From assembly GCA_965541585.1 (NCBI GenBank), contig CBEUCH010000017.1, forward strand, positions 5,922-69,921: a DNA stretch of 64,000 nt. Direction: 5' to 3'. How positions within the stretch are numbered: position 1 is the stretch's first letter; each line of letters starts with the position of its first letter. Below the pieces are notes generated by a model. The model was given only the letters and a program-made list of their open reading frames with translations. It was not told where the DNA came from and made no database searches. Below, piece by piece: positions 5,986 to 38,626 of this stretch. The DNA comes from an uncultured bacterium (lineage in GTDB: Bacteria; Zixibacteria; MSB-5A5; UBA10806). A program made the translations under genes and the position numbers.

Positions 5986-6912
5986 ATGCTCATAGATAAG
6001 CCGGCTGGCATGACATCGCATGATGTGGTCGATTTTCTTCGCGGGCAGTTGAAAATCAGACGCGTGGGACATACGGGCATTCTCGATCCTAATGCCACGG
6101 GATTGATGCTGATGCTTGTGGGTAAAGGAACCAAATTTTCCAGCTTCCTTACGGATTTGCCCAAGAGATACGTCGCCAGGTTTGTATTCGGAGCTGCGAC
6201 CGATACGTTTGACGCAGAAGGAAAGATAGCATTCAGGGCCGAACCGGGAGACATGAAGAGAGCCGATTTTGAAAAGATATTGCAGGAATTTTCCGGCGAG
6301 ATTGAGCAAATTGTCCCGCCATTTTCGGCCGCCAAGAGAAATGGGGTGCCGCTATATAAACTGGCGAGAAAAGGCAAGACGGTAACTCCCAGCCATAAGA
6401 TGGTAAGAATCAACAATATTGAAATCGTAGATTTCGATTGGCCGGAGGTAGCCTTGGATATCTCATGCTCTCCGGGAACATATGTTAGGAGTATGGCGCA
6501 CCAGATGGGGGAGATGTTGGGATGCGGCAGCCACCTCAAGAACCTTCGTCGTCTCGAGGTCGGCCAATTTCACGTGTCGGCGGCGTTGACGCCGGAAGAA
6601 GTCTCCAGAACCGACGTTATATCCCGTTTAATAAAACCTCTCAAAGATGCGCTACCGACGCATCCGGCCATCCATATCAAACCTCAATATTATGGCGCAG
6701 TGCTGAGCGGCCGACCGCTTGTGAAAAAATATATAGCGGAAAGCAATTACTCCGGCGACGGAGATATTCTTTCGATGCTTCTGGGACCTGACGATAAGGT
6801 CTTGGCGCTGGCAAGGCTGAATATGCTCTGGAGGGCAGTTGACAGACTCGGCCCATCCGAAATTATGGGAACTTATGTGAGGGTGATCGATGAAGGTCAT
6901 CTCAGGGCTTAG
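5986..6912 (+). CDS. truB: tRNA pseudouridine(55) synthase TruB
   Basis: 'MLIDKPAGMTSHDVVDFLR...VGHTGILDPNATGLM' is a TruB motif. The listed ORF from 5800 overlaps the DHH gene, so I trimmed it to ATG 5986, 11 nt after the DHH stop. Confidence 0.9.
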   Translation: MLIDKPAGMTSHDVVDFLRGQLKIRRVGHTGILDPNATGLMLMLVGKGTKFSSFLTDLPKRYVARFVFGAATDTFDAEGKIAFRAEPGDMKRADFEKILQEFSGEIEQIVPPFSAAKRNGVPLYKLARKGKTVTPSHKMVRINNIEIVDFDWPEVALDISCSPGTYVRSMAHQMGEMLGCGSHLKNLRRLEVGQFHVSAALTPEEVSRTDVISRLIKPLKDALPTHPAIHIKPQYYGAVLSGRPLVKKYIAESNYSGDGDILSMLLGPDDKVLALARLNMLWRAVDRLGPSEIMGTYVRVIDEGHLRA

Positions 6913-10254: not shown

Positions 10255-11523
10255 GTGGTAACTGGGGAATCGGCAATCTATAGAAAGACAGTTTTGCCTA
10301 ATGGTGTCAAGGTTGTAACTGAGACAATACCGTATGTCCGCTCGGTATCGCTCGGTTTATGGGTCGATGTCGGTTCCAGAGACGAATCGAATCAATCGTC
10401 CGGGATCTCCCATTTCATCGAGCACATGGTTTTCAAAGGAACGCGAACGAGAAGCGCATCCGAGATCGCTTCCTATCTCGAGTCTGTCGGCGGTATGCTT
10501 AACGCTTTCACAGGCAGGGAGCAAACCTGTTACTACGCCAAATTTCTCGATGAGCATCTTGGAAAGGCGATGGAGATCTTATTCGATCTTTTGAATAATC
10601 CTCTCTTCAATACTTCCGATATCGTAAAAGAAAAAAAGGTGGTCCTGGAGGAAATCCGCGACATCGAGGATTCCCCCGGTGATCTGATTCATGATCTGTT
10701 TGCCGGCGCCATATTCGGCGATCACCCTCTCGGTCGATCTATATTGGGCAGCAGAGGCACCGTCAAGGACATGAATCGCTCGAAGGTTCTTCGGTATAGG
10801 GGTAAATTCTATCGTCCGGATAGAATAGTGGTCGCAGCCTGCGGGAATCTGCAACATAAACGTCTGGTGCAGCTAACCAAAAAATATGTCGACCCGAGAA
10901 TTTTGCCCGGATCTCCCGATGGTCGAAAGAAACCGACATTCAAACCAAATCGAAAAACTTACAGGAGGAAAACCAACCAGACGCATGTCTGCCTTGGTCT
11001 ACCGGCCAGGGAGTTCACCCATCGATCGCGAACGTCTTTATTGCTGCTAAACTCGATCCTGGGCGGCGGGATGTCATCGAGGCTCTTTCAGCGTTTAAGG
11101 GAGGACCTTGGCCTGGTTTACAGCGTCTTCTCGTACCTCGATTTCTTTGCAGACAACGGCATTTTTGGCATCTATCTCGGTACAGATAAAAAAAGTGTCA
11201 AGAAGGCGTTGGCGGCCGTAAAAAAGGAAATAGACAATATCACCGGCAGCAAATTTTCCAGGGCGGAAATCGAAAAAGCTAAAGAACAGCTGAAGGGAAA
11301 TCTCATGCTGGGATTGGAGAACACCTCCAACAGGATGAACCGTCTGGCCAGGCACGAGCTTCTGGCCAACAGATATATCAGCCTGGATGAAACGGTTGCG
11401 ACTATAGACGCGGTCAAGCCTGAAGAGGTGAGCGAAATCGCATCTGAAGTTTTTGGGAATAGTGAATTTTCAGCAGTCACTCTTGGCCCGGTAGAAGGCG
11501 ATATATATTCCGCTCTAGAGTAA
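10255..11523 (+). CDS. M16 family (insulinase-like) metallopeptidase
   Basis: 422 aa with the inverted zincin motif 'HFIEHMVFKG'; common position after pnp. Confidence 0.85.
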   Translation: MVTGESAIYRKTVLPNGVKVVTETIPYVRSVSLGLWVDVGSRDESNQSSGISHFIEHMVFKGTRTRSASEIASYLESVGGMLNAFTGREQTCYYAKFLDEHLGKAMEILFDLLNNPLFNTSDIVKEKKVVLEEIRDIEDSPGDLIHDLFAGAIFGDHPLGRSILGSRGTVKDMNRSKVLRYRGKFYRPDRIVVAACGNLQHKRLVQLTKKYVDPRILPGSPDGRKKPTFKPNRKTYRRKTNQTHVCLGLPAREFTHRSRTSLLLLNSILGGGMSSRLFQRLREDLGLVYSVFSYLDFFADNGIFGIYLGTDKKSVKKALAAVKKEIDNITGSKFSRAEIEKAKEQLKGNLMLGLENTSNRMNRLARHELLANRYISLDETVATIDAVKPEEVSEIASEVFGNSEFSAVTLGPVEGDIYSALE

Positions 11524-31613: not shown

Positions 31614-32483
31614 TTGGCTTCAGGAGAGGATCACTTGGGAATTTTCACAGCTCTGACAAAACGATTTATAGCAGGCGAAACGAAACAGGATGCCGTGAAC
31701 GCCGTCCGCAGGCTCAACGAAATGGGTATGAGGACCACCCTGGATATCCTGGGCGAAAATGTCACATCAAAAGAAATGGCCCGGGATCTTGCTGATTTTT
31801 ATATCGATGTTCTCGACACCATATCATCCGAGAAGATCAGCGCCAACGTCTCATTAAAACTGACGCAGATGGGGCTGGACATCTCGGATGAGTTTTGTTT
31901 TGAAAACGTCGGCCGAATCATAAAGGCCGCCAAAGAGCGCGATAATTTCGTGCGAATCGATATGGAAGGCTCCGACTATACTGAGAGGACCCTGAAACTG
32001 GTTTACCGCTGGGCCGAGGAATTCGACAACGTGGGGACTGTTATTCAATCCATGCTATACCGCTCGGAAAATGATATTAAAGAACTCAACCAGCGCGGTA
32101 TAAGGATTCGCTTATGCAAAGGGGCATACAAAGAGCCGGCCAGCGTCGCCTACCCGAAAAAGGAGCAGGTTAACTCGAATTTCATCGTCCTGATGAAACT
32201 TCTTCTCGACAGCGGTTACTTTCATGCAATCGCCACCCACGATAACGCTATGATTTCGGCCACAAAGAAGTATGCCGATGAGCAAAATATCGGCAAAGAC
32301 AAATTCGAATTCCAGATGCTTTACGGCATAAATCGCACCGTCCAGACCGAGCTGGTATCAGAGGGTTACGGCATGCTGGTCTATGTCCCCTTCGGGACTC
32401 ACTGGTTTCCCTACTATTTCCGCCGGCTCCGCGAGCGAAAAGAGAATATCCTGTTCATATTAAAGCATCTGTTTAAGAGGTAA
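31614..32483 (+). CDS. proline dehydrogenase (monofunctional PutA-like)
   Basis: 289 aa; 'RFIAGETKQDAV', 'LDILGE', 'VRIDMEGS', 'RLCKGAYKEP' and 'ATHD' fit the PRODH barrel. TTG start; the N-terminus may be slightly short. Confidence 0.8.
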   Translation: MASGEDHLGIFTALTKRFIAGETKQDAVNAVRRLNEMGMRTTLDILGENVTSKEMARDLADFYIDVLDTISSEKISANVSLKLTQMGLDISDEFCFENVGRIIKAAKERDNFVRIDMEGSDYTERTLKLVYRWAEEFDNVGTVIQSMLYRSENDIKELNQRGIRIRLCKGAYKEPASVAYPKKEQVNSNFIVLMKLLLDSGYFHAIATHDNAMISATKKYADEQNIGKDKFEFQMLYGINRTVQTELVSEGYGMLVYVPFGTHWFPYYFRRLRERKENILFILKHLFKR

Positions 32484-32523
32484 GCCAGGAAGCAATTTTA
32501 TTTGTTACTCCAGGAGCAGTAAA

Positions 32524-32710
32524 CCTAAAACATCTCCCCCAGCCTGGCGGCGATGGACTCCAGGAGCTTCTCATCGCCGTCGCTGAAGGCGTTCAACTTA
32601 TCAGAATCAATATCGATCTCTCCCTTGACCTGATCTCCAATCATAATCGGGACTACTATTTCGGATTTAGTTTCAATGGAGCATGCCAGATACCTGGGAT
32701 CGGTGCTGAC
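32524..32710 (-). repeat. direct repeat copy A: orphan 3' fragment of a GAF gene (pseudogene fragment)
   Basis: Gap-free hand alignment to 37148-37334 gives 180/187 identical. It encodes 'STDPRYLACSIETKSEIVVPIMIGDQVKGEIDIDSDKLNAFSDGDEKLLESIAARLGEMF' plus a stop, with no upstream GAF sequence. Confidence 0.9.
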
Positions 32711-32810
32711 GGTGATCACTCCCTGACGGCCACTTTGACTTTTATGGAGGCTGCTTTGTAACCAGGGTTGATTCCGGGGCTAATCCGAAGAAGTTCAAAA
32801 CCGTCGCAGG

Positions 32811-33281
32811 TCAGTCGTCTGCACCCGGCCGTAAGATTCTTTTCTTGACTCTCTCGGGCAGTAATTGCCCGATAAGTTCCTTGATATCCGCGCCTCCCCG
32901 GATATTCAGCCAGACCATTCTCTCATGGGATTCAAAGACAAGTTCATAGGTCAGGAAGACGCAGCATTTACGTTCAAAAATGACGAATTCAACGAGGGCC
33001 TCGATCTTTTCGTCCGTGCCCTCAAATCCGAGACCGTATCCGTCCGATAGTTCCGCGAGAGCCCGTATATCGGCCAGCGCCCTGATGTCGGCTGCTCGTT
33101 TATCCGGGTTTCGCGCAATCTCGAGAAAGCAGGTATTCCGAGGCGACCTCTTTCCACTATCCCGCTCTTCCGCCGCGGCCGTCGGGACTACAAAATCGAT
33201 CCGGTAAAACGTCGGCACCAGCATCATAATTACTATCAATCCTCCGAGCCGTCCGGCTCCAGGGCGGCATAATATATTCAT
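32811..33281 (-). CDS. hypothetical protein
   Basis: 156 aa; ATG 33281 is preceded by AAGGAGAGG. The amino-acid tandem 'ADIRALADIRAL' is encoded by different codons (gac atc agg gcg ctg / gat ata cgg gct ctc), which argues for real coding. It has a 'ERKCCVFLTYEL' motif; the family is not recognised. Confidence 0.55.
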   Translation of the reverse strand: MNILCRPGAGRLGGLIVIMMLVPTFYRIDFVVPTAAAEERDSGKRSPRNTCFLEIARNPDKRAADIRALADIRALAELSDGYGLGFEGTDEKIEALVEFVIFERKCCVFLTYELVFESHERMVWLNIRGGADIKELIGQLLPERVKKRILRPGADD

Positions 33282-33532
33282 GTTCCTCTCCTTTCGTGAT
33301 GCCCGATTTGCAGGCCGCAGTATGCTACACCAAACTGCAGATCATTATAATCCGCAAAAACTTAATATTCCTCGAACATCTGCTATGTTGAATTAACCGA
33401 CTCGGCTCCCATTTGTCAAGTCTGTTGTCCGATGCGGGCGTCAGGGCGGGGAGTACCGTCAGGTTGTCATTAACTCGATAATATAGGATTGGATTGCAAC
33501 ATTTTCTTGAAACCGGTTTGACGGTTATTAAA

Positions 33533-33811
33533 TTAGGCTGATACTGCATCACGCATGACAATATCACATTGGGTCAGACTATACTTCTGCCGGGCCTCGC
33601 CAAAAGAGATGTTATAATGTATCCGGGTCGCAAAAAAGTTTAATAAATATCTTGACACGGTTGCCGCATACTGCTTAAGTTGACCTTTGTATAACAGCAA
33701 ATCTTTACCCTCCCCCCGGGTATGGCTATGCACCAGGATTTTCCGGCTGTTTGCGTTAAGCTCATTGGCGATACGCAGGTGCCTTCGATGAAGGATTCGG
33801 TTGATTTGCAC
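33533..33811 (-). pseudogene. possible tyrosine-recombinase (integrase) remnant
   Basis: The 92-aa ORF shows 'HLRIANEL' (cf. GLRISEL box I), 'TRGEGKDLLLYKGQLKQY' (cf. GKGxKxRxVPL) and 'FFATRIHYNISFGEARQKYSLTQCDIV' (cf. HxLRHxFAT...GHxxxxTTxxYxHV). The HxLRH and catalytic regions are lost or shortened and the N-terminal half is missing. By-eye similarity only. Confidence 0.3.
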
Positions 33812-33860
33812 ATTGTAATACTTTTGACCCGGGATATAAATTCTTTGGAGATTTCACAGC

Positions 33861-34706
33861 GTGCGTCCGAGAATCGTTGAATATCTAAATAATATAACCG
33901 GGATCGATATTTTCGGCTGGCTTGTTCCCGATCCGTCGGTAATTTATGCTTTTTCATTCGTGCTGGTGGTGATAGTCTTCGTGCGGCGATGCAAAACCGC
34001 CGGATTAGAGATCCGCGTCGCCCTGGATATCGCTTTCTGGGGATCTATTTGTGCATTCATATTCGCCCGCCTTTTTTATCTTTTCATTTATCAGGAGGGT
34101 GGTTCCCTGAGGCCGGCCGATTTGCTGTCATCCGGCGGAACTGCTTCCTGGGGAGTGTATACGGGCGTTTTCACCGGAGCCGTTCTTTATCTGCTAATCA
34201 GGAAACGGCGGATACTTCCTTATCTCGACATTATCGCCGCCAGTTTGCCTTTAAGCACCTTCGTCGGCAGATGGAGTTGTTTTATGTATGGCTGTGATTA
34301 CGGAACCCGCACAGATGTCGCCTGGGGGGTTCGTTACCCTTTCGCAAGTAAAGCCTTCGCCGCACATTTAGGCGACGGCCTGGTAATGCCGGATTCTCAA
34401 CTATCTGCGGCGGTTCATCCAAACCAGATTTATCTTTCGATTAACGCATTGATCTTGTTTATTATAATATCCCGTTTCTGGAGCAACAACAGATCAAAGC
34501 CCGGATTGACTTTTGCCTTTTACTTGACAGCCTACGGAATATCTCGTTTTTTCCTCGAATTCTTCCGGGACGACGCCGGCTCCGGACCGATTTCGGCATT
34601 AAACCTGCCCCAGACAATATGCCTGATTTCAATCTTCTTCGGAATAGGATGGATTGTTTATCTGCATTATGGCGCTAGAGAATTCGCTCACGCCAGAGGA
34701 ATTTAA
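33861..34706 (+). CDS. lgt: prolipoprotein diacylglyceryl transferase
   Basis: 281 aa, polytopic; 'GGTASWGVYTG', 'FVGRWSCFMYGCDYG', 'HPNQIY' and 'AYGISRFFLEFFRDD' match Lgt motifs. GTG start. Confidence 0.85.
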   Translation: MRPRIVEYLNNITGIDIFGWLVPDPSVIYAFSFVLVVIVFVRRCKTAGLEIRVALDIAFWGSICAFIFARLFYLFIYQEGGSLRPADLLSSGGTASWGVYTGVFTGAVLYLLIRKRRILPYLDIIAASLPLSTFVGRWSCFMYGCDYGTRTDVAWGVRYPFASKAFAAHLGDGLVMPDSQLSAAVHPNQIYLSINALILFIIISRFWSNNRSKPGLTFAFYLTAYGISRFFLEFFRDDAGSGPISALNLPQTICLISIFFGIGWIVYLHYGAREFAHARGI

Positions 34707-34738
34707 CCATTAAAAGAAGGAAGGAGGGAATTATCCGG

Positions 34739-35989
34739 ATGTTTAAAGCGTATACTAGACAGATACTGATGCTTGGAATCCTCGTCGCCGCGATTCTACA
34801 GTTCGGCGCCAATTGCGATTGCGAGCAACCTGTTATCGACTCCATGACCCCTGGTTCAGGGCCCGGAGGAACGATTGTCGAGGTCGTTTACTCGAAAGGC
34901 GGCTTGAGTGGGACGATCGAATACGATGGTGCTTTAGTGGAAACACGTAACGCAGGAAATCTGGGAATCGGCAAGACGCTTTTCTTCACCATTCCGTATG
35001 GTGCGACAGCCGGAGGAAAGAACGTCAGGGTGTATTCCGGAGGGAAGTACTCGGCCGCCCAGACGTTCAACGTAACAGGCTCCGCGGCCGTGCCAACCCC
35101 GGCCATCGACGGTTATGCATTCGGCAACGCCCAGGGTACCGAACTCACTATTTTCGGCAGCAATTTCAGCACTTTAACCGAGGTATTCATCGGCGGGGTG
35201 GAGGTCGCCGGCTATTCGGGGTCATCGCTTCCGTTACGGCAGATACCGCACGGTTTTGTCGACAATCTGATCATCTGCAAGCCGGCTTCCAATTTCGTTG
35301 CGGGAACATCTTACGGTGTACAGGCGCGGAATCCCGGCGGCATTAATTCCAGCACGGTTAATTTCACGTTCCCCGGCAGGGTTTGCGACATGGAATTCGA
35401 CGCCATAACCGGCACGCCGGTTCCGGACTATTACGTCTGGCAGAACAACACGGTAAACACGATCAGACGAAGCTACAGCGAGTGCGGCTGGGTGATTGAG
35501 TTGGCCTATGACGACACTTCGCTGGTGGACCCGCTTCCCGGTACGCCTTTCTCCTTTGCCGATCTGTACAGTTTCTGGCAGGCCAACGCCGCACCGACGG
35601 CAGGATGCTATATGCATGGGGCGTTTATTCCGGACGGTCCCGGGCCTCGCGGAGTCATGTATATGAACATCTTTAGCACCCCCAGTCTGCCCGCGGCCAA
35701 TCGCCGGCAGGGCTTTGGCGTCTTCTGGGACGATTTCGCAGGCTACGCCGATAGAATGCAGAAATACTTCAGAACTACTCTTCACGAATCGGGGCATGGA
35801 TTTAATTGCTTGCACGGCGATGCCAGCGCAAGCCAGACCCTGATGACCACAACGCCGTCGCTGGCCGCGGGGTGGCATTGCTTCTTCTCCACCACGAGCT
35901 GTCCTCATCTGAGCGGTCACACTCTCAACGCAGTCTGTCCCGGTGGAGAAGCCTTTGGCTCGTCACGTTCTTGCAACTCTTTGCATTGA
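34739..35989 (+). CDS. secreted IPT/TIG-repeat protein with a C-terminal HExxH (zincin-like) motif
   Basis: 416 aa with a signal peptide ending 'FGANC'. The IPT-like start 'PVIDSMTPGSGPGGTIVEV' is followed by a second IPT-like segment ('PAIDGY..GTELTIFGSNF') and a C-terminal 'TLHESGHGFNCLHGD'. Confidence 0.7.
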   Translation: MFKAYTRQILMLGILVAAILQFGANCDCEQPVIDSMTPGSGPGGTIVEVVYSKGGLSGTIEYDGALVETRNAGNLGIGKTLFFTIPYGATAGGKNVRVYSGGKYSAAQTFNVTGSAAVPTPAIDGYAFGNAQGTELTIFGSNFSTLTEVFIGGVEVAGYSGSSLPLRQIPHGFVDNLIICKPASNFVAGTSYGVQARNPGGINSSTVNFTFPGRVCDMEFDAITGTPVPDYYVWQNNTVNTIRRSYSECGWVIELAYDDTSLVDPLPGTPFSFADLYSFWQANAAPTAGCYMHGAFIPDGPGPRGVMYMNIFSTPSLPAANRRQGFGVFWDDFAGYADRMQKYFRTTLHESGHGFNCLHGDASASQTLMTTTPSLAAGWHCFFSTTSCPHLSGHTLNAVCPGGEAFGSSRSCNSLH

Positions 35990-36026
35990 GCCTTGTAAAA
36001 TGAAAACCAAAGTAAGGAGTAAGCCG

Positions 36027-36917
36027 ATGCGAAAAACGTCACTTCTGGTTCTGGCGGCCGTCATCTGTTTGATTTCTTCGGCGACCGCGCAGGACAGTAT
36101 TAGAGTTGCGGTGGAAGCGGAGAAAACGGACTTTTTATTGGGCGAGCCGGTTGCCGTCTATGTCACGATCACGAATACCGGGACCCAGGATATCCGGGTT
36201 TATTCGGAGGTTGGGCCGGAGTTCGATGGAAGCTATTATTTCATCACCGATCCCGATGGCAACACACGGGCGTTTTCTCCGATATTCGTCGCCGAACCGG
36301 ATGATCTCAGGACGCTCAGGCAAAACCAGAGCGTAAAAGGAGGCGGTCAAATATCCTACGGCGGCGAAGGATATTACTTTCCGAAACCGGGGAATTATGA
36401 AGTCGTCGTCCATTACAAAGGAGTTCAATCGGATCCTCTGCAGCTCACCGTTCTTTCTCCTCAAAACCAGGCGGAGCAAGAACAGGCCGATCTGATACTC
36501 GATCATCCCGAGGTCGGGCTATTCCTGGCCCTTGAGGGCGGCGATTTTCTCGAAGACGCCCTGGCACAAATCGAAACGCTTTCCGGCAAATATCCTAATT
36601 CGTTGATCACCTCCCACATGCTTTATGCCAAGGCGAAAAATCTATCCGTACCGGCCCGTAATTTTACTACCGGGAAACCCCGGGACGCAGACTTTCCCGG
36701 AGCCATAGGTATCCTGAATACCCTTAAGGATAGAAATCTGCCGTTATTCTATCAGAGTCGCGTATTCGGGACTCTCTCCCTCTGCCTCGAGAAAACGGGA
36801 AGAAAAAACGAGGCGGTAGAGACTTACCGCGAGTTCCAGAGAAAACTGGAATTGAACGAACGGCTGAAACCTTTTCACATTGAAAAGATCCAGAAGGAGC
36901 TGAGAAGGCTTCAGTAG
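36027..36917 (+). CDS. secreted hypothetical protein
   Basis: ATG 36027 lies 7 nt after AAGGAG. Signal peptide 'MRKTSLLVLAAVICLISSATAQD', then a beta-rich N-terminal half and a helical C-terminal half; family not recognised. Confidence 0.65.
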   Translation: MRKTSLLVLAAVICLISSATAQDSIRVAVEAEKTDFLLGEPVAVYVTITNTGTQDIRVYSEVGPEFDGSYYFITDPDGNTRAFSPIFVAEPDDLRTLRQNQSVKGGGQISYGGEGYYFPKPGNYEVVVHYKGVQSDPLQLTVLSPQNQAEQEQADLILDHPEVGLFLALEGGDFLEDALAQIETLSGKYPNSLITSHMLYAKAKNLSVPARNFTTGKPRDADFPGAIGILNTLKDRNLPLFYQSRVFGTLSLCLEKTGRKNEAVETYREFQRKLELNERLKPFHIEKIQKELRRLQ

Positions 36918-36922
36918 GCGAA

Positions 36923-36950
36923 GGGGCCGCCTTCGGGCGGCCCTCCCTTT
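36923..36950 (+). terminator. stem-loop terminator after the secreted-protein gene
   Basis: GGGGCCGCC-TTCG-GGCGGCCCT (8 GC pairs, UUCG tetraloop) begins 6 nt after the stop. The following U-tract is weak (CCCTTTAAAA). Confidence 0.5.
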
Positions 36951-37147
36951 AAAATCCTGAGATCGGGACTGTCAGGCTTTGCCTTTGATCGCCCGATCTA
37001 TAGAATTCTATATAAGCTTTTTGCTGCTTTTCCCTCAGGATGGAAGCCTTCGACATCCTGAGGGCAATTGTCTCATCAAGCAGGCGTCAGGTCCTACGGA
37101 TCCGTAGGAATGTCATTTCATTTCCATCCTCACGCAAAAGAGTCAGC

Positions 37148-37334
37148 CCTAAAACATCTCCCCTAACCTGGCGGCTATAGTCTCCAGGAGCTTCTCATCG
37201 CCGTCGCTGAAGGCGTTCAACTTATCAGAATCAATATCGATCTCTCCCTTGACCTGATCTCCAATCATAATCGGGACTACTATCTCAGATTTAGTTTCAA
37301 TGGAGCATGCCAGATACCTGGGATCGGTGCTGAC
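37148..37334 (-). repeat. direct repeat copy B (3' end of the intact GAF gene)
   Basis: Partner of 32524-32710. There are 7 substitutions: 5 are synonymous in the GAF frame and 2 fall in one codon (Ser/Thr). Confidence 0.9.
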
Positions 37335-37631
37335 ATCCGGGATAACAATAGTTCTTTTGGCGCGGGCGGCGGCCCCGCAAATGCCCTCATTAACCGGAAT
37401 TTCGCCATGCTGAGACGGTTTTCCCCTGTAAGGCCCTAATCTTAAAACATCGTCGTCATCCAGTATATAAATCCCCACCCAGTTATAATGGGGGACGCTG
37501 GCGTATAAGAGCCCGACAACCGCCTCCATTGCCGATTGGCTATTCGATGCCGTCTTGATAAAATCATCGGCGACCATTGCTATCCTGGATTTGGAGATAT
37601 CTTCTAAAAACTCATCGGTCATCGTTTCCAT
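37149..37631 (-). CDS. GAF-domain protein of the free-methionine-(R)-sulfoxide reductase (YebR/fRMsr) family
   Basis: 160 aa; 'YNWVGIYIL...LRLGPYRGKP...GICGAAARAKRTIVIPDVSTDPRYLACSIETKSEIVVPI..GEIDIDS' matches the small stand-alone GAF family. Two of the three Cys positions I recall for fRMsr are present. Confidence 0.8.
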   Translation of the reverse strand: METMTDEFLEDISKSRIAMVADDFIKTASNSQSAMEAVVGLLYASVPHYNWVGIYILDDDDVLRLGPYRGKPSQHGEIPVNEGICGAAARAKRTIVIPDVSTDPRYLACSIETKSEIVVPIMIGDQVKGEIDIDSDKLNAFSDGDEKLLETIAARLGEMF

Positions 37632-38626
37632 TCCTTGACAGCGTTGCTGAGTGCAAACAGGTTCTCATCCGGGGTATTTACCTTTACCGCGCACCCCGGG
37701 CCAATCATCAACCTCCCCGGCGGGGAGTCGCGAAAAGAATTCTCGATCTGACTTCTTATCTGGTCTTCCGAACCGTTTATCAGTACGCCGTTCTGATCGA
37801 TTCCTGTGAGAAATATCTTATCGGTGATCTGGGCCGCCTGGTGGATCGATAAATTTCCGGCCTCGAAGGGATTCCAGCTTAGAACCGGGACGGGATAATC
37901 CCTGAAAAGCGGTAACATATTGTTGGCTTTACAGACGTGGACAACATTGAATATGCCACTGCCGGCCGCCTGAAGTACCCGCAGGTCATAGGGACGTCCG
38001 AATTCGAGATATTGCTCCTCTGTTATACGATCGCGGCTGGCCCATTCGGTAGTCGCAAAGAAAATCCCCGCCATACCTATCTGCATGAATTCCCCGACAT
38101 AACCGCTGAAAGTAGCAGTAATCGATTCCAGGGTCTTATGAAGATCGTCAGGCGCCTCGTGCATCATCTCTATGAAACGTCCCTCATCCTTTATCAAGTC
38201 CCCGGCAATTGATAACGGTGAAAAGATTGTGGGAAGACAGAACACCTCCGATCCTGTTTGAGCCAGTATCTCTTTCCCGGCGTTCAGGGTCTCGCCCAGG
38301 GCTCCTGATCTCCAATCAAGCGGTTTTATTTTCTCCCAATCCGATTTTTCAGCAACCGGATAGATTTCGGGCGATGGTTTCACCATAGAATCATTCGAAT
38401 ATCGGAACCTCATCCCCCAGTCTTCGACATGGTATGATGCCCGCGAATTGATCTTGATAAAATCCCAATCATACTTCCTCTGAAAACCGATCATCGATTT
38501 AACCAGATCCGGTTTTGTATTCTCCTTATCGAAGAAATGTCTCCATGCGGAAACAACGGGGCGGTCTACCTCCCGCCCCTCAAGGACTCTCTTGACACGT
38601 TCCTTATGTGTTAATTGCTCTCTCAT
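37619..38626 (-). CDS. uroporphyrinogen-decarboxylase-family (MtaA/CmuA-like) methyltransferase
   Basis: 335 aa; the N-terminal 'THKERVKRVLEGREVDRPVVSAW' is typical of the UROD/MtaA fold. Candidate Zn ligands are 'VHVC' and 'GPGC'. The stop overlaps the GAF start by 13 nt. Confidence 0.8.
   Translation of the reverse strand: MREQLTHKERVKRVLEGREVDRPVVSAWRHFFDKENTKPDLVKSMIGFQRKYDWDFIKINSRASYHVEDWGMRFRYSNDSMVKPSPEIYPVAEKSDWEKIKPLDWRSGALGETLNAGKEILAQTGSEVFCLPTIFSPLSIAGDLIKDEGRFIEMMHEAPDDLHKTLESITATFSGYVGEFMQIGMAGIFFATTEWASRDRITEEQYLEFGRPYDLRVLQAAGSGIFNVVHVCKANNMLPLFRDYPVPVLSWNPFEAGNLSIHQAAQITDKIFLTGIDQNGVLINGSEDQIRSQIENSFRDSPPGRLMIGPGCAVKVNTPDENLFALSNAVKEWKR

Follow-up and report, generated by a model that had tools for sequence, protein, structure and literature searches.

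Cis-mobilizable elements (CIMEs) are islets that lack an integrase and lie between att sites at a gene's 3' end, such as that of fda in Streptococcus thermophilus; they are defined by att sites shared with a cognate integrative and conjugative element (ICE) that supplies the integrase. At icd of Escherichia coli the intact gene runs into element e14, and a C-terminal pseudogene, icdC, remains (PMC13626634, citing Hill et al. 1989). In homology-facilitated illegitimate recombination (HFIR) one end is joined by homology and the other illegitimately (PMC3240628; PMC5361080), and one-sided homology has been proposed as the origin of the orphan 3' ends found at Rhs and type VI secretion system (T6SS) loci (PMC5361080). 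Here we describe a 4.4-kb insert of four accessory genes in a 64,000-nt stretch of DNA from an uncultured member of the Zixibacteria (GenBank assembly GCA_965541585.1, contig CBEUCH010000017.1, positions 5,922 to 69,921; hereafter the window). The insert separates a conserved GAF-domain gene from the proline dehydrogenase (ProDH) gene and lies between two copies of the last 187 bp of the GAF gene, as follows.

32524..32710, minus strand: copy A, an orphan GAF 3' tail (codons V100-F160, stop and 1 nt; partial Pfam GAF match), whose stop-proximal part and downstream flank are native
37148..37334, minus strand: copy B, the 3' end of the intact GAF gene; upstream part native, last ~32 nt with four clustered synonymous changes and running into a foreign spacer
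37149..37622, minus strand: the intact GAF-domain (fRMsr-like) gene, the insertion target; 157 aa, Pfam GAF E = 1e-13

Alignment of 32524-32710 with 37148-37334 confirmed the direct repeat reported in the initial annotation, with 180 of 187 positions identical and 0 gaps, and likewise its reading of copy B as the end of an intact GAF gene and of copy A as an orphan of 61 codons plus stop. The mismatches fall at plus-strand offsets 16, 18, 28, 31, 33, 136 and 139, corresponding in the same order to sites 171, 169, 159, 156, 154, 51 and 48 in gene orientation. Five of the seven are synonymous and the other two occupy one Ser/Thr codon, also as first annotated, such that the two encoded tails differ by this single amino acid. 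One boundary of the repeat lies 1 nt beyond the TAG stop of the GAF gene and the other at its codon V100 (...GGTGCTGAC); similarity stops abruptly past both ends, and the loci are unrelated beyond them. Since the runner-up direct repeat within 14 kb reaches at most 28 nt at ~70% identity, the 187-bp repeat is far above chance.

We compared the site with related loci, which are designated by L numbers. The relevant native flanks are listed below.

31614..32483, plus strand: ProDH gene, native left flank; Pfam Pro_dh E = 1e-33, 93% aa identity to the L006 orthologue
32484..32523, no strand: native spacer between the ProDH and GAF stop codons; 41 nt including shared base 32524, homologous to and equal in length to the L006 spacer
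37619..38626, minus strand: URO-D-family gene, native right flank; Pfam URO-D, 96% aa identity to L006, syntenic in all relatives

The closest relative, L006 (ENA ERZ26800074 NODE_35), is ~95% identical in nucleotide sequence to the window over 20 kb and has the gene order URO-D > GAF > < ProDH < HisKA, with the stop codons of GAF and ProDH 41 bp apart. The GAF gene also adjoins ProDH in L007/L008 and L019 (82-86% nt identity), across a different spacer of 130-144 bp. The expectation that the two genes would be convergent neighbours without the insert is thus borne out in L006, L007/L008 and L019. When positions 32711-37334 were removed from the window in silico, the joined sequence was collinear with L006 at 89-95% identity over the join and with no gap; the initial annotation had proposed such a join as a test for an empty site. 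Copy A stands 41 nt from the ProDH stop, followed by an L006-type spacer, and therefore holds the original position. These empty sites prove the locus to be a true insertion between convergent GAF and ProDH genes.

A second clade (L009 and L020) carries the same four genes in the same order between GAF and ProDH. L020 is a single 45.9-kb JGI contig across the whole site, and L009 is 95-97% identical to it; L018, from the same ENA sample as L006 (ERZ26800074), covers the GAF-side junction only. No orphan GAF tail was found in L009, in L020 or in the GAF-side junction covered by L018. The cassette is absent from L006, the closest relative of the window, and present in all three sampled members of the other clade, so lateral arrival in the window's lineage is the most likely history. 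Between the window and L020, synonymous divergence (dS) was 0.10, 0.34, 0.36 and 0.42 for the cassette genes, compared to 0.48-0.77 for flanking genes on the ProDH side and 0.85-0.97 for those on the GAF side. The final 100 nt of the insert are 100% identical to L020, and identity falls to 82% at the GAF stop codon. The lower dS of the cassette and this step in identity argue that the cassette moved horizontally, and horizontal acquisition is well supported by these comparisons. The composition of the insert, another point raised at the outset, is mildly deviant: its tetranucleotide distance is surpassed by just 1% of equal-sized window segments (99th percentile), and its GC content is 0.512 versus 0.492 for the window.

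The two tails carry a record of how the insert may have entered. Both belong to the type of the window's own clade, differing from L006 at 11-12 positions and from other lineages at 27-35. At the seven sites at which they differ, L006 agrees with copy B at 48, 51 and 154 and with copy A at 156, 159, 169 and 171, giving a single switch. The four states of copy B that depart from L006 fall within 16 nt beside the foreign post-stop spacer, and one of them, T169, is common to L018. The spacer itself (GCTGACTCTTTT), which leads into an element resembling repetitive extragenic palindromic (REP) sequences, has 1-2 mismatches to the L018 and L020 versions. The stop-proximal states of copy A and the spacer downstream of it are native. 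This is the pattern expected of one reciprocal crossover inside the shared tail, between an incoming GAF tail and a resident one that are 3.7% diverged. The crossover would lie between sites 51 and 156 or, when polarised by L006, between 154 and 156; with a recipient that had the Ser codon found in L020, any position within the 102-nt identical block would be possible.

The cassette would then have been attached on arrival to the final 187 bp of a GAF gene, along with a foreign post-stop spacer and the REP-like element, and would have entered by a single reciprocal crossover within the shared 187 bp. Such a Campbell-type insertion-duplication would probably have involved circularised DNA, and a circular intermediate is accordingly presumed here; the enzyme would most likely have been a host RecA-type homologous recombination system, or possibly a recombinase acting in trans. 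One product would be copy B, in which the resident gene is fused to a donor-derived end, and the other the orphan copy A, in which a donor-derived upstream part is fused to the resident end and the native spacer. The repeat boundaries match the extent of homology between donor and recipient. The repeat stops 1 nt past the stop codon, where the spacers diverge wholly, because the spacers of the two clades share no homology and that between donor and recipient ends there. It would end at codon 100 if the incoming molecule had been closed at that point, at the distal joint, the sequence of which is given below with that of the proximal joint.

32711..32759, no strand: window-specific distal junction segment, with no counterpart in L009/L020, whose similarity begins at 32760
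Distal joint, cassette to orphan tail: GGGAGTGATCACCGTCAGCACCGATCC
Proximal joint, cassette to GAF: GAGATGTTTTAGGGCTGACTCTTTTGCGTGAGG

At 32711-32733 the distal joint reads ...GGCCGTCAGGGAGTGATCACC|GTCAGCACC..., with CCGTCAG present twice, 10 nt apart, round an 11-nt filler. This arrangement is suggestive of an illegitimate or closure joint, which the distal joint probably is. We consider a homology-driven, Campbell-type insertion-duplication to be the best reading of the locus, and hold it with moderate confidence.

The initial annotation instead proposed site-specific integration and placed an integrase-like remnant between the first two cassette genes, in the following interval.

33282..33860, no strand: divergent intergenic (promoter) region, a 580-bp gap between cassette genes 1 and 2; non-coding

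Inspection covered the six frames of 33290-33870, and those scanned (three long minus-strand segments, along with the ORFs (open reading frames) of the insert) had no match in Pfam (E up to 10) or PHROGs. Compared to L009 and L020 the interval is 88-99% conserved but contains a 22-nt indel, a 1-nt indel and a variable run of C residues (33712-33717), which numbers 6 in the window, 7 in L020 and 8 in L009. The frame-breaking indels, the variation of the C-run and the lack of a family match therefore mark 33282-33860 as non-coding, promoter-type DNA, and the integrase remnant was rejected; what had been read as such behaves as conserved promoter DNA. An Rfam search of 31.5-38 kb returned no match. 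As a separate observation, the C-run could be a slippage-prone tract within the divergent promoter region.

The insert contains no recombinase gene by Pfam, PHROGs or NCBIfam. No recombinase was found in the window between 22.5 and 47.5 kb, as judged by synteny with the L006 annotation, nor among ten ORFs beside the two tRNA genes, which were scanned directly. These tRNA genes, at 20.0 kb and 55.5 kb, are the only ones present and their neighbours are not integrases, so tRNA-linked integration was set aside. There was likewise no integrase beside the cassette in L009, L020, L010, L011 or L040. Two scans of viral contigs and a search of PLSDB plasmids found no relatives of the cassette, and no cognate integrase-bearing element occupied the site in related loci L006-L009 and L013-L020, a thin sampling. 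The orphan junction, searched for as an exact sequence among JGI metagenome contigs, gave no match. Since neither the insert nor the parts of the window that were scanned revealed a recombinase, site-specific integration is unproven. The related proposal that the element carries a replacement 3' end survives in part: the intact gene does end in foreign sequence, and the orphan keeps the native end and its 41-nt spacer, but this property is not constant, since L009 and L020 lack the orphan tail.

Several observations weigh against Campbell-type entry and bear on its rivals. The single switch rests on seven sites, and by our own count ~6 of 128 patterns fit the predicted direction (p ~0.05); its polarisation holds to the extent that L006 represents the recipient well. 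A tail of the recipient's clade type was carried in next to a spacer of the other clade type, a mismatch that requires either an intermediate donor in the window's own clade or earlier rounds of exchange. Neither a circular form nor a second, independent assembly of the orphan junction was found among JGI metagenome contigs, and the sole other genomes bearing the cassette are without an orphan tail. Nor does the model account for the first joining of the 187-bp tail to the far end of the cassette, where the junction has an 11-nt filler and not a clean microhomology. The first rival is HFIR, in which a linear donor would have been anchored by short homology in the last ~30 nt of GAF. Its far end would have been joined to codon 100 by an illegitimate event, perhaps on a sister chromosome or in the course of gap repair, so that 187 bp of resident sequence became duplicated; the three upstream differences of copy A would then be later, neutral mutations of a pseudogene. 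The foreign tract of copy B, which begins just ~32 nt before the stop with clustered changes, is in keeping with such an anchor, as is the illegitimate appearance of the distal joint, with CCGTCAG on either side of the filler. Both tails would be of the recipient's clade type with no need for an intermediate donor, and at T6SS and Rhs loci HFIR has been put forward as a process after which orphan 3' pieces are kept (PMC5361080). Two of the three changes specific to copy A are synonymous, however, and the third is a conservative Ser/Thr exchange, which by our own estimate slightly favours allelic divergence under selection over pseudogene decay (likelihood ratio just ~2). Moreover, HFIR normally deletes the recipient DNA between its two joints, whereas here that DNA would have been duplicated. 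On this balance HFIR is a possible but unlikely origin.

The reciprocal mosaic of the two copies is also compatible with a decayed integrative element (a prophage, an island or a CIME-like islet) that integrated site-specifically at the GAF 3' end through a tyrosine or serine integrase, supplied a replacement 3' end, as e14 and phage 21 do at icd, and either lost its integrase or received it in trans. The architecture is that of e14 at icd/icdC (PMC13626634), and the same cassette is found at the same gene end in two clades. We nonetheless regard this origin as rather improbable: the insert holds no integrase or remnant of one, none lies in the scanned parts of the window or beside the cassette in L009, L020, L010, L011 and L040, viral and plasmid relatives were not found, L009 and L020 lack the duplicated tail, and flanking direct repeats of at least 16 nt are missing in the other contexts (L010/L011). 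A further proposal, which we view as distinctly doubtful, is a non-autonomous mobile cassette that circulates among Zixibacteria-like lineages without its own integrase, either carrying the target 3' end as a homology 'landing pad' such that the target is never inactivated, or being moved by a trans-acting enzyme linked to the REP-like hairpins at its ends. If either version were true, the GAF-ProDH gap would be a recurrent hotspot of targeted integration, not the site of a one-off accident. Finally, the orphan tail or the whole insertion might be a chimeric path through metagenome strain variants. The window is evidently from a metagenome assembly, given that its closest relatives are all metagenome-assembled genomes (MAGs) or metagenome contigs, occupied and empty strains co-occur in at least one sample (L006 and L018, ERZ26800074), and several assemblies break near the locus. 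Yet occupancy of the site was assembled independently on one contig in L020, at the inner junction of the orphan, unique cassette sequence meets GAF codon 100 in a manner that a mis-join at a shared k-mer cannot produce, and the seven copy differences form a biologically coherent pattern. An assembly artefact is therefore very unlikely.

Homology-driven insertion-duplication thus remains our preferred reading of how the cassette entered. Its genes and its non-coding end are as follows.

32811..33281, minus strand: cassette gene 1, 156 aa; hydrophobic N-terminus, conserved KCC motif
33861..34706, plus strand: cassette gene 2, Lgt-family paralog; Pfam LGT E = 1e-41
34739..35989, plus strand: cassette gene 3, 416-aa putative lipoprotein; weak Pfam TIG match with IPT/TIG-like repeats, HExxHxxNxxH zinc-protease-like motif
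36027..36917, plus strand: cassette gene 4, secreted 296-aa protein; ATG start as in the L009 gene call
36918..37147, no strand: structured non-coding insert end, comprising the gene 4 terminator, a two-hairpin REP-like element (~37032-37135) and a 12-nt foreign spacer abutting the GAF stop

The gene 1 product is, by prediction, a small membrane protein. It had no Pfam, PHROG or NCBIfam match, its orthologues are 87-90% identical in L009/L020 and 42% identical in L010/L011, and an AlphaFold model built on a three-sequence alignment was unusable (predicted local distance difference test score, pLDDT, 39.6). Compared to its neighbours, gene 1 shows an unusually low dS (0.10) and a high ratio of nonsynonymous to synonymous divergence (dN/dS ~0.65) against L020; this segment may have undergone very recent exchange, or may be constrained at the nucleotide level. 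Gene 2 had been labelled lgt. The Pfam LGT domain upholds the family, whereas scores below the NCBIfam equivalog cut-offs (85 bits for TIGR00544, cut-off 118.9; 99.5 for NF000778, cut-off 334) do not uphold the gene name. Its product has just 38 relatives at E <= 1e-30 among 5.8 billion proteins, and is probably a divergent paralog within the Lgt family and not the housekeeping Lgt equivalog. Across five orthologues of gene 3, the Cys that follows the signal h-region (G-A-[N/S]-C) is conserved, as is the motif HE..H.....H; the product is a putative metzincin-like lipoprotein with an atypical lipobox, and a PDB sequence search with the 416-aa protein gave no significant match. The mechanical ORF of gene 4 begins at 35943, at a GTG overlapping the end of gene 3, and orthologue calls (L009, 296 aa) place the start at ATG 36027. 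Its protein had no Pfam or NCBIfam family match.

The Lgt paralog lies directly upstream of the protein with the odd lipobox, and the four-gene module, small KCC-motif protein included, is conserved as a unit in three unrelated contexts (window 33861-36917; L010 5169-9105 and L011 6381-10317; L040 1-3756). Distant versions, with 54-58% Lgt identity, occupy two unrelated contexts: between AraC/hydrolase genes and a two-component system plus RND (resistance-nodulation-division) pump in L010/L011, and upstream of an M23 peptidase in L040. No direct repeats of at least 16 nt flank the module in L010 or L011, the two loci searched. The pairing of an Lgt paralog with a G-A-[N/S]-C protein suggests a dedicated lipidation module. 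Two patches of the cassette, 34347-34700 and 35447-35950, are just 65-77% identical to L009/L020, with 90-100% identity over the remainder; one spans the C-terminal part of the Lgt paralog, the other the C-terminal region of the 416-aa protein that bears the metal motif. This patchiness indicates that the cassette is itself a recombination mosaic.

The GAF-proximal end of the insert is highly structured (fold z-score = -4.9), and positions 37043-37142 are 100% identical to L020. Hairpin 1 of the REP-like element has the form CCTCAGGATG-gaaatgaaatga-CATCCTGAGG and is split in the window by a perfect palindrome, TCCTACGGATCCGTAGGA; hairpin 2 follows after ~15 nt (TTTCAGGATG-tcgcaa..cttc-CATCCTGAAA). 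The window copy had no Rfam family match. The 64-kb window contains one copy of the REP-like core, inside the insert at this end. Other copies of the element occur at L009 8840-8875, at L020 near 6130-6230 and 10530-10565, and in L021-L039, and the 20-nt core was present in 19 JGI metagenome contigs, mostly in such hairpin repeats and with several copies per sample. A 26-nt direct repeat (GCGTCAGGATGGAAATGAAATGACAT) is no evidence for an att site of the L009/L020 clade, since its core motif belongs to this dispersed element of 19 contigs, and that reading was dropped. At the repeat boundary (37329-37341) the GAF sequence reads CCGGAT|GTCAGC, and it shares the 7-mer GGATGTC with a stem-loop edge of the REP-like hairpin (CAGGATGTCG, 37035-37046); by our own estimate this match is at chance level (p ~0.03), and it would matter only if REP-linked recombination were involved.

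The state of the GAF-ProDH gap also differs in a third lineage. L013-L017 have another gene downstream of GAF, so the gap is variable. In L013 (10475-10845; likewise L014-L016, with GAF 80% identical) the gene after GAF is neither ProDH nor part of the cassette. It ends in ...KEVKKAILLK, which by eye resembles a C-terminal domain of the type IX secretion system (T9SS) type, and in this lineage contigs from a number of independent samples all end close to one point, a few tens of nt apart at most. These observations suggest that the GAF-ProDH gap is a recurrent variable hotspot.

The target gene itself encodes a single GAF domain of ~160 aa, matched by Pfam GAF and GAF_2. The ORF as listed (37149-37631, minus strand) has 160 aa, and every homologue starts at codon 4; M4 is therefore the probable start, giving 157 aa. 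An exact look-up of the 160-aa ORF returned no record, probably as a result of the gene being called with 157 aa. The homologues are of full length, and L-methionine (R)-S-oxide reductase is the name given to them in several sources, including JGI for homologues at 60-66% identity. By domain and homologue names, the protein is fRMsr-like (free methionine-R-sulfoxide reductase type). Its closest relatives are from uncultured Zixibacteria-like organisms; a search of genome contigs found just ~50%-identity relatives in Terracidiphilus and Robiginitalea and was uninformative.

Taken together, the locus provides a natural case, at base-level resolution, in which an uncultured lineage gained an accessory operon beside a conserved gene and left that gene undamaged, with the empty, occupied and duplicated states all sampled. 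It also illustrates that duplication of a gene tail, usually read as integrase-mediated, can occur with no integrase in sight, a point of caution for software that calls islands and prophages automatically. A dedicated lipidation module is hinted at by the cargo, and current understanding is not overturned.

Compared to the systems introduced above, the locus resembles CIMEs in being a small islet without recombination genes between direct repeats derived from a gene 3' end, but differs in that no partner element was found in related loci or in the viral and plasmid sets. It shares with e14 and phage 21 at icd the placement of an element in the 3' end of a housekeeping protein gene, an orphan C-terminal fragment at the far end and largely synonymous copy differences, and excision would likewise regenerate a chimeric functional gene. 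However, e14 is a prophage of 15 kb that encodes its integrase and excises on SOS induction, whereas here the cargo is 4.4 kb, non-phage and without a detectable recombinase, and the same cassette occurs elsewhere without a duplicated tail; because the defining integrase is absent, we do not file the locus as an e14-type element. The orphan modules of Rhs, contact-dependent inhibition (CDI) and T6SS loci are similar in that a new 3' end with cargo displaces the old one, which is kept downstream as an orphan. Their displaced ends encode different toxins and immunity genes and function has diversified, in contrast to the present case, in which the peptides encoded by the two tails differ by a single Ser/Thr exchange and the cargo has no relation to the target gene. 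The closest likeness in process is to Campbell-type insertion-duplication and HFIR: the repeats are the stretch of homology between donor and chromosome, a fragment containing the 3' end of a gene leaves that gene intact, and, as in HFIR, one end appears homologous and the other illegitimate. These are mechanisms, however, and not families of elements. To our knowledge, a natural 187-bp duplicated gene tail round a four-gene cassette is not a described class, and the locus is best regarded as a further instance of an event whose kind is known and fairly ordinary.

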